This document shows, one piece after another, positions 5,179 through 52,763 of a stretch of 64,000 nt of DNA. Source of the DNA: a virus. The notes beneath the pieces are model-generated. The model was not told where the DNA came from. It saw nothing but the letters and a program-made list of their open reading frames with translations, and ran no database searches. Each line of letters starts with the position of its first letter. Positions within the stretch are counted from its first letter, which is position 1. Made by a program: the position numbers and the translations under genes. Where the stretch lies: positions 3,238-67,237 of the IMG/VR virus record IMGVR_UViG_2531839741_000003; one strand, 5' to 3'.

Positions 5179-6012
5179 ATGAGTATTTTTGAAAAAGAAA
5201 TTGAAAGAAGATTAGAAAATAATGAGGAAGTTTACAATGCCTATGAAGTTTTAGCTAGTACTGATTTTCATTATGTTAGCTGTGAAGAAGAATCACCTAT
5301 ATATGAAAGTATAATGATTGATGATTATGATTGGATGTCAGGTGCAACAAAAGTCTACATTCTGTTTGCTGATTTTCATTATGTTAGCTGTGAAGAAGAA
5401 TCACCTATATATGAAAGTATAATGATTGATGATTATTATTGGATGTCAGGTGCAACAAAAGTCTGCATTCTGTTTGATGATTTTGTATTGAAAACATTGA
5501 TTTGCGGCGAAATGGAATGGAATGAAGAAACTGGCACTTTTGAAGAGATTGATTGCGGCGATACTTATGATGATTTCTGTAGAATAGAATATCAGGTTTA
5601 TCAAAGAGCAGTAATTGAGGGGGTATCCCAGTTCTTTGCTGAAACAATTTATCTTGGTGATAGCGTCTATGCACAACAACGTTCTGAAGGCGATGTTTGT
5701 GATATTGAAACAGAGGTTGAAGACGAAGAATTAACAGTGGCAAACTTTGTTAATAGCACTTGTAAGGCATTAGGTATTGAGAAACTTCCAACTTATTTTG
5801 ATAGTGATTATTATCTTGTAAAGTGCTTCTTTGATCACTATTCTGATTTAGAAATGGTTCAGTTATATAATTTCTTAAAAAAGTATGATATTAACGATCT
5901 CCACGATGGTAATGTCGGGGTCTACAATGGCAAGCCAATGATTTATGACTTTAGCGGATATTTAAGTTGTACGTCTGAAAGAATTAAAAAATCCTTCAAA
6001 ACGAAAATTTGA
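5179..6012 (+). CDS. protein-kinase/APH-like fold protein with an internal 36-aa duplication
   Basis: DLHDGN and YDFSG resemble the catalytic loop and DFG motif; VLK upstream. Confidence 0.55.
   Translation: MSIFEKEIERRLENNEEVYNAYEVLASTDFHYVSCEEESPIYESIMIDDYDWMSGATKVYILFADFHYVSCEEESPIYESIMIDDYYWMSGATKVCILFDDFVLKTLICGEMEWNEETGTFEEIDCGDTYDDFCRIEYQVYQRAVIEGVSQFFAETIYLGDSVYAQQRSEGDVCDIETEVEDEELTVANFVNSTCKALGIEKLPTYFDSDYYLVKCFFDHYSDLEMVQLYNFLKKYDINDLHDGNVGVYNGKPMIYDFSGYLSCTSERIKKSFKTKI
5261..5476 (+). repeat. in-frame 108-bp tandem duplication
   Basis: 5261-5368 and 5369-5476 differ at two positions. Confidence 0.9.
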
Positions 6013-6581: not shown

Positions 6582-6655
6582 TGGAAGGTCGTCTAAAGGT
6601 AGGACACGGGACTTTGACTCCTGCAATAATAGTTCGAGTCTATTTCTTCCAGCCA
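6582..6655 (+). tRNA. tRNA-Gln(TTG)
   Basis: Acceptor TGGAAGG/TCTTCCA, anticodon loop CTTTGAC, T-arm AATAG-TTCGAGT-CTATT, encoded CCA. Confidence 0.95.
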
Positions 6656-7414: not shown

Positions 7415-7735
7415 GGGGTCGTATTAGGTTCGACAGCATAATGGAAAATATTAAGCAAGCAAACCTTTTAACAAGAAATTGCACTAGTAATTTTGCAATG
7501 GCTGCCTAAGTGCAGCCCGTCAATTATAAGTTCCTGTTGCGGCTTATAAGTTGGCGTGGATTAGCAACAGAAAAACTCAGGACAATTGTAATGCGTCTTG
7601 TTTCACCTCCTAAATTACATGGCGGCTCAATAGTTTTGTTCATTTTGTAGAGCTACTATATTAAAATGAAATAAGCTTGTAGAAAGATATTGGAAGTTAT
7701 GTTGGACAGGAGTGCAATTCTCCTCGACTCCACCA
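7415..7735 (+). ncRNA. ssrA: tmRNA
   Basis: GGGGTCG/CGACTCC acceptor with G3-U70, ends ACCA; tag frame ANLLTRNCTSNFAMAA then TAA. Confidence 0.92.
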
Positions 7736-7919: not shown

Positions 7920-9230
7920 ATGGATTTCCGAAAACTAAAATCAATTGGCAATTGGGCAAATCTAAATAGTATAGATTACCAAACTTATATGGAATGTATA
8001 AAGTTTAGGTTTCTAGAAATTAAAGAAATTTTCCCTGAAATTGATTGGGAGCTATTCAAAACCCATACTCTATCTGAAAGTTTTATTCCAGACAGAGCAA
8101 AGTATAAATATGCAGATAAATTTCTAACTGGTTTTGCTTTTGCAAAAGAAAAGTCTGCCGCCGAAGTTGAATTAATTAATCAAATTTTGTCTATTAGTAC
8201 TCTTGACTTTAGAGAATATGAGATTATAGGTTGGTTACATCAAAATTATTATAATCTTGATAAGAAAGACGTTGATAAGAAACGCCGAGAGGGTAAAGCT
8301 ACAAATGAACAAAGTGAGCTAGAAAAGACTTCTCAGATTTTTACTCCTAAGTGGATTGTAGAATATTTAGTTCAGAATAGTTTAACTTATTATTCTAGAG
8401 AACTTATGGAAGATTATAGCCAAATACTAGATTATTGTGATTATTTTACTCCTAATGCTGTTGGGATTAAAGATAGTAATTCAATTAAAGTTCTTGAACC
8501 TTGTTGCGGCTGTGGAATGTTTATAATTCAAATATTAGATTTCTTACAGCGTTTTATTGTAAAAGATATTCGCCGCATTTGGAATGAGAATATGATTGTC
8601 TATGCGGATTTAGATCCAAAAGTAATTGATGTTACAGATTTCATTTGCTATGTTTACAATCTTACAAGAAATTTTGATTATCAACCTCATGGATTCCTAT
8701 ATCAAAATGAACTAGGATTTATGGATTGTGATTGTGAGATTTGTAAAGACAAGTATGACGTAATATTAACAAATCCTCCTTATGTTGGAAATAAGAATCT
8801 TCCTAAAGAAACAAGAGAATATTTGAAAAAGAATCTGCCGCTTGGTAAAGCAGATTTATGCACGGCGGCCATGGAACAATCTATGAAGATTTTGAAACCT
8901 AATGGAATGATCTCGATGGTAACATCCGATAGCTGGATGTTCTTGAGTAGTTTTGAAAAGCTAAGAGAAAAAATTATTGATGGTTATGATATTATTACAA
9001 TGGCTCATTTAGGTGCTGGTGCTTTTCAAAATGTTCAAGGTAGTGTTGTTAGAGCTACAGCTTTTGTTCTTCAAGAAGGCAGAATTGAGAACTTAAATGG
9101 ACATTATTTTAGACTAGTTGATTCAAAAAATAAGGAAAAAGATTTCTTTGTATGTCATTTCGATGATGTCAAATTTTTGACTTCTGAAGAGTTTTGTGAT
9201 ATAATAAATATAGAAAAAGAAAAGAGGTGA
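7920..9230 (+). CDS. BREX PglX-like (Eco57I-family) N6-adenine DNA methyltransferase, shorter than typical PglX
   Basis: QIFTPKWIVEYLVQNSL, EPCCGCG, TNPPY, SWMFLSSFEKLR, TMAHLGAGAF. Confidence 0.8.
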   Translation: MDFRKLKSIGNWANLNSIDYQTYMECIKFRFLEIKEIFPEIDWELFKTHTLSESFIPDRAKYKYADKFLTGFAFAKEKSAAEVELINQILSISTLDFREYEIIGWLHQNYYNLDKKDVDKKRREGKATNEQSELEKTSQIFTPKWIVEYLVQNSLTYYSRELMEDYSQILDYCDYFTPNAVGIKDSNSIKVLEPCCGCGMFIIQILDFLQRFIVKDIRRIWNENMIVYADLDPKVIDVTDFICYVYNLTRNFDYQPHGFLYQNELGFMDCDCEICKDKYDVILTNPPYVGNKNLPKETREYLKKNLPLGKADLCTAAMEQSMKILKPNGMISMVTSDSWMFLSSFEKLREKIIDGYDIITMAHLGAGAFQNVQGSVVRATAFVLQEGRIENLNGHYFRLVDSKNKEKDFFVCHFDDVKFLTSEEFCDIINIEKEKR

Positions 9231-10343
9231 GAAAGATATTAAGAGGATTTAAAACAAATATTTATCCAACAAAAGAGCAAGAAGATATTCTTTTTGCATA
9301 TTGTGAATACGCTCATAAAATGAGAAATTTTTTAGTAGAGAAATTCAAAGATAATCTACCTAAAGTGGGACCTTATGGAATTATTGGGTACAATGAGAAA
9401 AAATTATTAGAAGAATTTAGTGAGAGAGAAATTCCTAGAATTCCCTTACCGCATCTTTTATTAAAAGGAGTAATAAGAGGATATGCAACTTCCGTTAGAA
9501 AAACATATAAGAAGCTTGCACGCCCACCCAAATTTCACAAATATATTGCAAACAAACAGTCTTTTTATATTCCAAAAGATTATTCTATCATATCTAATAC
9601 AATAGTTTTACCTCTCAAGAGAAACACTTGATCCAAAAATATCAAGAATTAAAGCTGAAAGAGTTTATCTTGAAAAATTTAGTATTACTCAAGTAAAAGA
9701 ACCTAGATATACTTATCAAAATGGGAAATGGTATATTTCAGGTTGCTATGAGGATGGTATTACTCCACAAAAGAAAGAAACAACTTTTGTAGGTCTTGAT
9801 TGGGGGATTAAAAATTTTATGACAACCTCATAGGGGGAGTTGATAAATTATCCAGATAGTGTAATTAGAGAATATGAACGGATTAAAAAATTAATATCTA
9901 TTAGAGATAAAAAAGATAAAGGTTCAAATAATTACCTAAAAATTGATAATAAAATAAATGAAGCTTGGGAAAGATTTGATAACTTAAAAAGAGATTTTAT
10001 TGAGCAGATTACAAATAAATTATGTAAAAATTATAATATTGCAGTTGAAGACTTAACTGATGCAAAAATATTAAAATCAACTAAAAATAGGAGACGTTTA
10101 AGACTTATAGCACCAAGATATCTTTTTATTGAAAAAGCAAAATGGAAATGTCAAAAATATGGTACGCAATTTGTTGAAGTTAATCCAGCATATACTTCTA
10201 GAACTTGCAGTAAATGTGGAAAAGTTAAAGAGAATCTATCATTACAAGATAGAATTTTTAAATGTGAATGTGGATTTGAATTAGACCGAGATATAAATGC
10301 GGCAATTAATATTGCTGCAAGGGGAGCCTGTGAAGCCCTTTAA
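9227..10343 (+). mobile_element. tnpB: IS200/IS605-type TnpB, frameshifted near 9612-9630, with one in-frame TAG; no tnpA nearby
   Basis: N-terminal IYPTKEQ; RuvC motifs VGLDWG, IAVEDL, DRDINAAINI; Zn finger CSKCG/CECG; the 9227 and 9840 ORFs join via a +1 shift and TAG 9831-9833. Confidence 0.85.
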
Positions 10344-10392
10344 AACCACAACATGGTTAATCAAAATGATATCACAGCAAGCGGTAAGACGT

Positions 10393-10658
10393 TGGGAAGT
10401 AGACGAATAGGTACAGTCAGCGGTCCCTAAAACCGTGTGTTAAGGGTTCAAGTTTGGACCCAATAATAAGCGATTATTATTGAAAAGCTATTGAATTGCT
10501 GGAAACTTTACAAAGTAATCAGCAGCGAATTAATACGTTCAACGATTATTCTAATTGAAGTACAGCTTTGCTGGAAGCAATAGCCACCTCAAGCAGGTGA
10601 TGATATAATCTATTTTATATTTATTCTAAATATAAAGCGAACCCCTTCTTCCCATCCA
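10393..10658 (+). tRNA. amber suppressor tRNA (anticodon CTA, probably Gln); exons 10393-10448 and 10638-10658
   Basis: Spliced form: acceptor TGGGAAG/CTTCCCA, D-arm GAC/GTC with GG, GCGGT-CCCTAAA-ACCGT, T-arm AAGGG-TT|CGAAC-CCCTT, T-CCA. Confidence 0.9.
10449..10637 (+). ncRNA. group I intron (IA-like), ORF-less, in the tRNA T-loop
   Basis: P1 GGGTTC/GGACCC with U-G at the splice site; P3 GCTATTG/CAATAGC; P4 TGCTG/CAGCA; GTTCAACGATTA and GATATAATC (P7); P8 CACCT/AGGTG; terminal G 10637. Confidence 0.88.
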
Positions 10659-10661
10659 AAA

Positions 10662-10700
10662 TGAAAATAGCCTCGTCATTTACAGACGGGGCTTATTTTT
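10662..10700 (+). terminator. probable intrinsic terminator after the suppressor tRNA
   Basis: AGCCTCGTC-atttaca-GACGGGGCT hairpin followed by a T-rich run. Confidence 0.65.
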
Positions 10701-10786
10701 TACTCTTATTAAAGTTTGACTTTTATAAAAATTTATGATATAATATATATAGAAGGTAAGGGAAAGAGAACCGAAAGGAGTTTATT

Positions 10787-11143
10787 ATGAGTTACATGAG
10801 AAGTATAGATGGATGGGCAGACAATGTTTATGCTGAAAAATATAAAGCTATGGGATTGGACTTGTCCATTACAGTAAAAGATTTAATGAATATTTTTGAT
10901 GATTGGAATTTGGGTGTAGATGGAGTTAGCTTTTATAATGGCGATAGAAAAATATTCTCAAAGACGGTTAGAACAAATCATAAATGGAATGCTGAAACAA
11001 TGGATTGGGATACAGAAGAACCGATTCCATGGAAAGAATTGATTAAAACAGTAGATGAGAAGGATCTGAAAAAGAAGGTCTATAGAGCAGAAGAAGATTG
11101 TTTTCCAGACGGAAGTAATTGGTTAAGCATTTACACCAATTGA
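10787..11143 (+). CDS. hypothetical protein
   Basis: Promoter plus AAGGAG RBS. Confidence 0.7.
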   Translation: MSYMRSIDGWADNVYAEKYKAMGLDLSITVKDLMNIFDDWNLGVDGVSFYNGDRKIFSKTVRTNHKWNAETMDWDTEEPIPWKELIKTVDEKDLKKKVYRAEEDCFPDGSNWLSIYTN

Positions 11144-35049: not shown

Positions 35050-35509
35050 TGGTATTTCCTCCTTAATAGTTAGTAGTAGTTAGTAGTAGTAGTTATTAAT
35101 TAGTAGTTAGTAATTAATAACAATTAATAAAGAAAATAGAGAACTCTATTAATCTCTATTTTCTAATTATATTATACCATAAAATTTCTTTAAAGTCAAA
35201 TTTTTATTATTAAAATCGAAAATTTGACTTCTTAAGAAAAATATGCTATAATTATATTATAGAGAGAAATAAAGTAGTAAATAAGTATATAAACTATTAT
35301 ATTTTAATAATAGAGAAAGCCGCGATAGCGGATTTCAAAAATTTTAATTGGTCGAGCGTTAGCTCAAACGATTACAAATTTTTAAGGGGAATCGAGCCAA
35401 AAGAAACGTATTAAGAGAACGGCGGCGAAGCATTGTATTTTGGAATTGTAGTTAGTAGTAGTAATATAATAGTTTATTACTTTTCTCTTGTTTGACAATT
35501 GTAAAGGAG

Positions 35510-36733
35510 GTGATAGTAATATTTAAGTTGGATTTTACTATTGAATTATAGGAAGATAGAATGGAGTTTTTAAAGAAAAATGTTGATTTAAAATCTTTGT
35601 CTCAAAAAGACCTAGAATTATGTACTAATTATGTACTCTATGGAAAAGACAAAGATGGTACTTCAATGGTTGATAAGAAGCTTATTTATATTAAATCTAA
35701 ACATAATTCTTATTAGAGACAAGAACCTTTATCTCTAGAAGCTTTATTAGAAGATCCAAATTTTGAAGAATCGTAGTTAAAAGAACCCACTAATATTTAT
35801 AAAAAGATTAAACCTTCAATTGATAAGGAAAAAGTTAAAGATATTCCTGGCATGGTAGAGTTATGGGAAGAAATTGATAAGTTAGATTAGTTTATTTAGA
35901 TTTAGGAAGGCAAAGTTAAACCAGAATCTCCTGTTAAAAAGGTTGATTCAAAAACCCTTTATACTCTAAAACACACACTAATAGATCTTCGCCGCCAATA
36001 GTATATTTTGAAAGATTCTTAGTTCCCTGAGATTTAGCCGAGAAAAAACTATTCTTAGTTTTATTCTAACAGCGCCGATTATTAGGTTAATTACTAGGTT
36101 TTTCCTATTGGAGTTATGAAAGACGAACATGACATTAGATTTACAGAGCCTTGGAGAGATAATAGCAGTACGGCGGTGCGAAATATTGAGGAAGAAATTA
36201 AGCAGTTGAATAAAGAAGGAAAATTTTATTTTAATTTCCTTGATAAGAATCACATTTATCAATTGTGTTTATATTATTATGAGGTTAAGGATTTAGCTAG
36301 AAAACATCCTGATTCGCTTTTAAACAACCTATTATTAACTCTTGATTTCTATATTGATAAAGCGCATTTAAGCCCGCAGCAAAGATTAATTCTTGAAGAT
36401 AAGAAACGTAGAATGAAGAATGAGGAAATTTCTATTCACTTGTTTGAAGAACTAGGCATACATCACTAGGAAAACTATATTAGTACTATTTGGAACAAAA
36501 CTTGTAAGCTCGTGGCCGCTGCAGCAAATTTACACTATGATGAGTGGCTGGCGAGAAACTATGATAAAGCGTGGAAAATTTGTGGATGTTGCGGCAAAAA
36601 ATTACTTAGGGACACTAGGAATTTTGTTAGAAAAAATAACTCATATGATGGGCTTACTTTAAGATGTAAATAGTGTGATAAAAAAAAAAGGTTAGGAATA
36701 CTAGATTTAGAGGACGGGGTTAAAAATAAGTGA
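35510..36733 (+). CDS. putative transcription regulator (HTH-like region plus C-terminal Zn finger), about 407 aa, 14 in-frame TAG
   Basis: One frame from GTG 35510 to TGA 36733 with no TAA/TGA; LSPQQRLIL..EEIS..L helix pattern, CGCCG...CK(Q)C; start approximate. Confidence 0.7.
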
Positions 36734-51700: not shown

Positions 51701-52763
51701 ATGATCCTCAGACAATGGAACCATTCCAAGATGGTACTCCAATTGCAGAGGGCGAAGTGATTTATAAGTTTACACGTTCTGTAGCTTATGATGATAATAG
51801 TATTGGTAATACAATTGAAATTTCTGCGGAGAAATTCCCTGGTACTTATCGTGTAGTAGGCGAGACTTATGTACGTGATAAGAAGACTGGTGAAGATCAG
51901 AGATTCCAGTTCGTTATTCCAGAGGCTAAACATTTGGTCGCTTAAGTGGAAACATTTAAGGCAATAATTAATTAATTGCTGGGAAAACTTAGGTCAAATA
52001 AACCACAACGCAGTCAGGAATGGCATTCGTGAAGGTTTGAAAATTATTTGATAGTAGAGTTAATCAGCAGCGCGGCGACAGCAATCGCAACGTTCAACGA
52101 CTATTCCGAGAGGAAGTAGAGGTTAAGTAATCTCGAAATATTAAATACCTGAAAAGGTAAAGATATAGTCTTATCATTTGCGGTGACGCAAAGTTCTAGA
52201 CAAAGTAATACGAATACTTTGAAAAAATAAATGAAAATGTCAGCAGAAGATACATCCATTACGCTTGAAGCGGATGGAGATCCAGTCGTAAACAGTAAAA
52301 TCAAATGCGACTGTAAAATTGCTTAATTGCTGGGAACTCCTTAGAGCTAATAAAACTACAACATAATCTGAAAAGATAAGTGTGAATGTTAAAAATTTAT
52401 TAGATTGGACAATCAGCAGCGTAGTACCTTAAAGGGTAAACGTTCAACGACTATTCCGTAAGGAAGTAGAAGTTAAATAACTTCGATGTGACAATTACTG
52501 AAAAGTAAAGATATAGTCTGAACTTCTATTGAAAGATAGAGATATAACAAAATTGGTTTGACTTTACAATGGATGTCCTTCGTCCAGACGATGGCGTAAT
52601 GATGAAGTTCATTCAGTTTGATACAGTAGAAAACGAAGAAGAGAACGATGGTTCTACAATGGTTAAGGATACTGAAAACCTCAACCTACTTGACGATGCA
52701 GAAATGTATAAGATTAGTAGTGATACAGAGGAAGACCTAGCTATTGGTGCTACTGAATATTAA
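48706..52763 (+). CDS. tail-tube-like paralog A; exons 48706-51927, 52234-52289, 52556-52763; 1 TAG
   Basis: YGIKEVADV, PVLYLDTLKVST, ITWDFSKEI..EDALF, FPGTYRVVGETY, and after splicing TLEADGDPVVFDFTMDVL; structural role inferred from position. Confidence 0.7.
51928..52233 (+). ncRNA. group I intron 1 of paralog A
   Basis: P1 GGCTAA/TTGGTC with U-G; AATTGCTGGGAA, AATCAGCAGCG, GTTCAACGACTA, GATATAGTCT; ends in G. Confidence 0.85.
52290..52555 (+). ncRNA. group I intron 2 of paralog A
   Basis: P1 CAGTCGT/GCGACTG with U-G; same core motifs; ends in G. Confidence 0.88.

Follow-up and report, generated by a model that had tools for sequence, protein, structure and literature searches.

A glutamine-type amber suppressor tRNA gene interrupted in its T-loop by a group I intron in a TAG-recoded phage

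Intron-form tmRNA was reportedly described by Williams in 2002. For tmRNA genes interrupted by T-loop group I introns, 883 sequences have been counted at four T-loop subsites, one of which, subsite 3, lies after two U's and has been reported only from Bacteroidia (PMC11915505). Group I introns of bacterial tRNA genes fall into 21 classes, all in the anticodon loop; the method behind this classification tested only eight positions there, and the same text notes the T-loop group I introns of tmRNA genes (Williams, bioRxiv 10.1101/2020.01.27.920355). As the design of this survey, the only systematic one, confined it to the anticodon loop, any T-loop case would have escaped it. The initial annotation of the locus described below had stated that bacterial tRNA introns classically sit in the anticodon loop, and published tRNA cases are indeed placed only there, although the annotation did not mention the closest precedent, the T-loop introns of tmRNA (PMC11915505). 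Full-text literature searches found no published tRNA, suppressor or otherwise, whose T-loop is split by a group I intron.

Phages that have reassigned TAG to glutamine (code 15) encode suppressor tRNAs (Borges et al., bioRxiv 10.1101/2021.08.26.457843; Yutin et al., PMC7886860). Recoded genomes without a detectable suppressor have also been reported (Borges et al., bioRxiv 10.1101/2021.08.26.457843), as have crAss-like ones (PMC7886860). Theta (HDV-like) ribozymes are found beside phage suppressor tRNAs, with a proposed role in the code switch (Kienbeck et al. 2024, PMC10879173).

Here, we focus on a phage amber suppressor tRNA gene that is split by a group I intron within its T-loop. The stretch of DNA that was analysed (64,000 nucleotides, hereafter the window) corresponds to C24:3238-67237, within a 2.2 Mb, 65-contig MAG. 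The split gene, the helices of its intron and the flanking elements are as follows.

9177-9205, + strand: promoter-like site, TTGACT-17-TATAAT with extended -10 TG, 11/12 matches
9227-10343, + strand: tnpB-like transposase gene (phrog_506, E 2.9e-60, scanned over 9483-10343 with TAG read as Q)
10393-10448, + strand: tRNA exon 1, comprising the acceptor 5′ strand, D arm, anticodon arm, variable region, T-stem 5′ strand and T-loop U54 and U55
10444-10461, + strand: P1 hairpin and internal guide sequence, from the Rfam alignment and the sequence
10449-10637, + strand: group I intron, 189 nt, without an ORF, matching RF00028
10462-10481: P2 of the intron
10487-10493 with 10578-10584: P3 of the intron
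10497-10502 with 10519-10524: P4 of the intron
10505-10516: P5 of the intron
10525-10538: P6 of the intron
10544-10548 with 10606-10610: P7 of the intron, GAUUA with UAAUC
10549-10560: P8 of the intron
10614-10636: P9 of the intron
10637: terminal G of the intron, directly 5′ of the 3′ splice site
10638-10658, + strand: tRNA exon 2, comprising the T-loop remainder CGAAC (also P10), T-stem 3′ strand CCCUU, acceptor 3′ strand CUUCCCA, discriminator U and encoded CCA
10669-10700, + strand: intrinsic-terminator-like hairpin and T run directly after the tRNA, 9 pairs of which 6 are G-C, tail TATTTTTT

A cmscan search with relaxed filters, confined to 10200-10800, matched RF00028 at 10439-10635 on the + strand with 62.1 bits (E 2e-15) against a gathering score of 50 bits, and the match covers the full model (1-253). 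The initial annotation had called a full group I core with a U-G pair in P1 and a terminal G, bounded by exons at 10393-10448 and 10638-10658; the core is borne out and the borders are correct to the base. The intron also exceeds the RF00028 cut-off in a search of the whole assembly. By contrast, a whole-window Rfam scan at gathering thresholds reported no intron at the 10393-10658 locus, because its default speed filters dropped it; the same scan returned two tandem group I introns at 51918-52541, the tmRNA at 7415-7735 and six tRNAs.

The splice junction follows from the pairing of the guide with both exons. In P1, GGGUU of exon 1 (10444-10448) is paired with GACCC (10457-10461), placing the wobble U10448·G10457 at the 5′ splice site, and it is to U10448 that the conserved U of the RF00028 model aligns. 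In P10, GUUUG (10452-10456) is paired with CGAAC (10638-10642) of exon 2. The P1 and P10 guide segments abut, which fixes the junction at 10448/10638 (UU/CGAAC) with G10637 as the terminal G. The predicted ligated exons read ...AAGGGUU/CGAACCCCUU..., and the intron lies after U55, between T-loop positions 55 and 56. ARAGORN accepts a sole alternative junction, C10449 with G10639, which was ruled out because it shortens the T-loop to 6 nt and forfeits both the U·G pair and P10. An RNAalifold consensus of the intron and two paralogs contains 46 pairs, 12 of them kept via compensatory changes, which with three sequences amounts to modest support; the helices recovered are P2, P3, P4, P5, P6, P8, two peripheral hairpins and P9. 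P7 is invariant among the three paralogs and is part of the pseudoknot, hence its absence from the consensus fold. The intron looks functional and is predicted to be self-splicing.

When the exons are joined (10393-10448 plus 10638-10658), ARAGORN calls a 77-nt tRNA with anticodon CUA and an encoded CCA, in agreement with the complete cloverleaf that had been proposed. The acceptor stem has 7/7 pairs, the D stem 3 bp, the anticodon stem 5/5 and the T stem 5/5, leaving all 20 cloverleaf stem pairs intact. The loops comprise the anticodon loop CCCUAAA and a T-loop UUCGAAC of the TTCRANN type; GG (G18, G19) is present in the D loop, and U8 is also present. The discriminator is U (U73), whereas most tRNA-Gln genes have G or A, and the anticodon loop (10424-10430) has C at position 33 in place of the near-universal U. 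C33 is shared, however, with the homologue in the relative G404, with six IMG/VR suppressors that have an identical anticodon arm, and with natural tRNA-Gln(CUG) genes (L285, L293); the identical arm belongs to intron-less CUA tRNAs on 6 IMG/VR contigs. The CCCUAAA anticodon arm (L068; L010-L015) occurs in phage CUA tRNAs that look unrelated, one of them with a long variable arm. The unspliced gene is called neither by ARAGORN, which finds six other tRNAs in the window, nor by the Rfam tRNA model, much as the initial annotation had expected of standard tRNA scans.

Chance joining of flanks does not readily produce a tRNA. Brute-force joining gave none at 29 group I introns of relatives (29 out of ~95; 9,787 joins including the window control), none at 9 other group I introns of the same phage and none at 80 intron-like pattern matches (21,964 joins). 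The window locus was recovered every time, and the ~31,000 control joins yielded no false positives.

The glutamine type of the tRNA is evident in its D arm and acceptor stem. The D arm GUAGACGAAUnGGUAnAGUC was found in 42 tRNAs in a search of IMG/VR and GTDB, 32 of which are tRNA-Gln (UUG or CUG) and 4 CUA suppressors; the tRNA-Gln genes stem from phages and from bacteria that include cyanobacteria and Omnitrophota. Identity between the spliced tRNA and the best-matching of these tRNA-Gln genes is 72-74%, and its U1-A72, G2-C71 and G3-C70 pairs are the same as in the phage's own tRNA-Gln(UUG) at 6582, a likeness already pointed out by the initial annotation. U1-A72 is a known determinant for GatCAB. 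By its sequence, the split gene is a glutamine-type amber suppressor tRNA. Among natural tRNA-Gln(CUG) genes, those of two cyanobacteria, L276 (Desmonostoc MAG) and L282 (Microcoleus MAG), have T-loop inserts of ~25 nt relative to intact orthologues such as L277; these may be small repeats or mini-inserts.

The phage itself has reassigned TAG. Open reading frames become sharply longer on contigs C24, C47 and C31 when TAG is read as sense, and tblastx against the relative G402 adds C16, C4 and C25, giving ~136 kb of assembled phage on six contigs; complete relatives, found via a capsid-like protein, measure 150-186 kb. The late genes of the window are TAG-rich, as had been claimed, with 79 in-frame TAGs in 21 late ORFs, and most of its early half can be read with the standard code. 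At TAG sites of the phage, relatives have CAA 126 times and CAG 25 times, far above anything else (loci of 39 relatives), and opposite the TAGs of relatives the phage most often has Q (85 cases; next K, 19). TAG therefore encodes glutamine. At the head of the late region, a sigma-factor-like gene (35492-36733, phrog_5767) contains 14 in-frame TAGs, so late transcription may itself depend on the suppressor.

Seven tRNAs are seen in the assembled phage, and across all 65 contigs (2.2 Mb) ARAGORN detected no other CUA, UUA or UCA tRNA. On the question of a second, intron-free CUA tRNA, which according to the initial annotation would speak against gating, none is present in the ~136 kb assembled; given the 150-186 kb of complete relatives, a piece may be missing on which such a suppressor could sit, and uniqueness is thus not proven. 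The binned genome encodes GatB (596.7 bits) but lacks GlnRS, for which the best match reached 71.9 bits where the cut-off is 425.8; this MAG is a candidate host, since co-binning with the phage contig is not proof of a host relationship.

The gene lies in a setting of repeated promoter-like sites. Four near-identical promoter-like repeats (TTGACT-17-TGnTATAAT plus flanks) occur in the window, at 6009, 9177, 10716 and 12243, and the same element occurs dozens of times in the relatives G401 and G402. The site at 9177-9205 is likely the start of a transcript running through tnpB into the split tRNA. The tnpB-like gene has two in-frame TAGs, and its frame looks broken upstream of 9483, so that 9227 is a putative start. 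Its stop precedes exon 1 by 49 nt in the same orientation, and tnpB lies outside the intron. The insertion sequence seems to have landed between the promoter (9177) and the suppressor tRNA; its guide RNA region would border on the tRNA leader or run into it. Elsewhere in the window, the phage tmRNA (7415-7735) is uninterrupted; it scores 94.3 bits with Rfam and is missed by ARAGORN. An identification of the split gene as intron-form tmRNA was ruled out: its host RNA is a 77-nt tRNA with an anticodon arm, and the phage tmRNA is the intact gene at 7415-7735.

The intron belongs to a larger set. RF00028 matches number 10 in the assembly, all on the phage-like contigs C24, C47 and C4, and this one alone lies in a tRNA; the phage contigs hold at least 10 group I intron copies, mostly in protein genes. 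The two closest paralogs, both on C47, are 75-77% identical to the tRNA intron over the core and have no tnpB inside. Judged from these copies, the intron is a member of a family proliferating in this phage. On C47 (L006:9654-10305), a group II intron (RF02004 148.5 bits, RF00029 62.4 bits) adjoins three group I introns, and the genome is unusually intron-rich.

Intron-less alleles, which the initial annotation had suggested seeking in related phages, do exist. Each of the closest relatives, G401 and G402 (74% capsid-protein identity), encodes ~48 tRNAs, a tmRNA and, adjoining the tmRNA, two intron-free CUA tRNAs with U1-A72. G404 carries an intron-free homologue of the split tRNA, which matches it in D arm and loop, resembles it in the T arm and has a long variable arm; when 24 whole relatives were searched with the locus DNA and a D-arm pattern, a homologous tRNA was found in G404 only. 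In G403, a complete genome of 157 kb in which ORF coverage rises when TAG is read as sense, ARAGORN called no CUA tRNA. The sole CUA candidate there is a homologous gene (L262:1029-1168, at ~121.45 kb) with a hairpin-forming insert of 46 nt on the 5′ side of the anticodon loop; without the insert it is a 94-nt tRNA(CUA). The insert-bearing gene is identical in L256, L258 and L263, and the insert matches no Rfam family and is too short for a group I intron.

The split arrangement itself was sought more widely. No RNA run turned out to contain the phage. Three DNA runs that were checked gave only fragments of relatives, among them a 197-nt contig from another sample, ~86% identical, that aligns end to end over 10423-10613 and spans the junction of exon 1 and intron; the split thus seems to be retained in one diverged relative or more. 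In IMG/VR, the exact junction pattern had no match, and a pattern of the intron core plus GCGAA returned 80 loci, all of them P9 tetraloops and none in a tRNA. A pattern of anticodon loop, GGTT and P4 gave only chance matches in protein genes in IMG/VR and JGI metagenomes. Across 50,697 GenBank phages, the sole BLAST match was 43 nt long and fell in the promoter repeat. In 400 genomes of the host family, BLAST did not detect the split gene, and all matches were short and weak (20-40 nt, E 8e-5 to 1e-3).

We consider it probable that the locus is the phage's amber suppressor, a derivative of tRNA-Gln, into which a small, mobile, ORF-less group I intron was inserted between T-loop positions 55 and 56, most likely as a tolerated selfish element. 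The split gene would be transcribed together with the upstream tnpB from a host-type promoter. The intron would then fold, with its guide binding GGGUU in P1, where a U·G pair marks the cut, and the CGAAC of exon 2 in P10, and guanosine-initiated self-splicing would ligate UU to CGAAC. Only after splicing could the T arm and acceptor stem form, allowing processing by RNase P and charging. Because the binned genome has GatB and no GlnRS, charging would probably proceed via a non-discriminating GluRS and GatCAB (Glu-tRNA-Gln), if the MAG is the host. The charged tRNA would read UAG as glutamine in the TAG-rich late genes, and the practical effect of the intron is that annotation overlooks the suppressor. 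The anatomy of the gene, its glutamine type, the reading of TAG as glutamine and the paralog family are observed in the DNA, whereas splicing in vivo, charging and timing are predicted from it.

The initial annotation had gone further and proposed a splicing-gated code switch, in which the rate or conditions of self-splicing would set the timing of the suppressor and hence of translation of the TAG-rich late genes. Such a gate would accord with the split gene being the only suppressor found in the assembled phage and with the 14 TAGs of the sigma-like gene (35492-36733), which should make late expression steeply sensitive to suppressor level. The junction also appears to be kept in the diverged relative represented by the 197-nt contig, the sole CUA candidate of G403 is interrupted too, by a different element, which could hint at selection for interrupted suppressors, and theta ribozymes adjoining phage suppressor tRNAs have been proposed to act in the code switch (PMC10879173). 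Yet the intron consists of a standard compact group I core, to which no ligand site, alternative fold or regulatory element is added; intron-free suppressors serve the relatives that share the recoding (G401, G402, G404); and the phage contains at least 10 copies of such introns, most of them within protein genes. Constitutive splicing is also the general rule for group I introns of bacterial tRNAs and of phages, which counts against gating. Dependence on splicing, which the annotation took as the gate, is trivially true of any intron-containing tRNA, and the sequence bears no sign of regulated splicing. With no positive evidence of its own, and weakened by the relatives' intron-free suppressors and the proliferating intron family, the gating idea is not supported, and we regard it as distinctly unlikely; the intron is probably not an evolved control device. 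It is just as doubtful that interruption of suppressors has been selected across this phage clade, with removal of the element (the T-loop intron here, the 46-nt insert in G403) acting as an RNA-level timer of the code switch. What stands of the initial annotation is the split amber tRNA, its likeness to tRNA-Gln, the T-loop position, the complete group I intron, the TAG-rich late genes and the failure of standard scans; the gate and switch do not.

It is conceivable, though unlikely, that the intron has inactivated this copy of the gene and that TAG decoding falls to a suppressor encoded in a missing stretch of the phage genome or proceeds by other means. The assembly is incomplete, C33 and U73 are unusual, and G401 and G402 possess two suppressors each among ~48 tRNAs, when this phage shows 7 tRNAs. 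A dead gene would be expected to decay, however, and here all 20 stem pairs and a canonical T-loop are intact, as are P1 and P10 of an intron whose core scores above the Rfam cut-off; the relative represented by the 197-nt contig, ~14% diverged, still aligns across the junction. The proximity of tnpB, with its stop 49 nt 5′ of exon 1 on the same strand, could suggest that intron and transposase form one mobile unit, as in the IStrons of Clostridioides. In IStrons the insertion sequence sits in the 3′ part of the intron (PMC4227781), but here tnpB is upstream of exon 1 and outside the intron, and the gene is therefore not part of an IStron. The intron of 189 nt has no ORF, and its C47 paralogs also lack tnpB. 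This composite reading is ruled out by anatomy, since the genes of the insertion sequence are not inside the intron, and we accord it next to no probability.

Interpreted as a tolerated insertion into the phage's own suppressor, the locus has consequences for how recoded phages are read. Interrupted suppressor genes are one possible explanation for recoded phage genomes that seem to have no suppressor tRNA, and pipelines that deduce the genetic code of a phage from its tRNA content will miss such genes. The guide of the intron pairs with GGUU/CGAA, a sequence present in nearly every tRNA; with a target so close to universal, reverse splicing could in principle carry such an intron into a large number of tRNA genes. 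Were suppressor supply limited by splicing, this would bear on the trigger of the code switch, although present evidence is not in favour.

What sets this locus apart from published cases is the T-loop position in a tRNA and the suppressor as host gene; T-loop introns in tmRNA and anticodon-loop introns in tRNA were known. The phage intron is likened to the T-loop introns of tmRNA by position and features: in both, the U before the cut is contributed by the loop and the intron ends in G, and most tmRNA copies are, like the phage intron, small and without a homing endonuclease. At the minor tmRNA subsite 'position 3', the intron falls between the same two nucleotides as in the phage tRNA. The host RNA sets the two apart: the phage intron interrupts a genuine tRNA of 77 nt with an anticodon rather than a tmRNA, and this tRNA is found in a phage. 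Bacterial tRNA group I introns resemble this one in that splicing precedes folding and charging and in that default tRNA finders miss the gene; they differ in lying in the anticodon loop, in belonging to subgroup IC3 and in that none interrupts a stop-codon suppressor, whereas the phage tRNA intron resembles the phage's own protein-gene introns. With other code 15 phages, this phage shares a glutamine-type CUA tRNA, in-frame TAGs in late genes and an early region largely compatible with the standard code, and it differs from them in that the suppressor gene is interrupted. Theta ribozymes offer a further parallel, in that maturation of a phage suppressor tRNA is physically coupled to a ribozyme; they cut at the 3′ end of the tRNA from outside it, whereas here a predicted splicing ribozyme lies inside the tRNA body.
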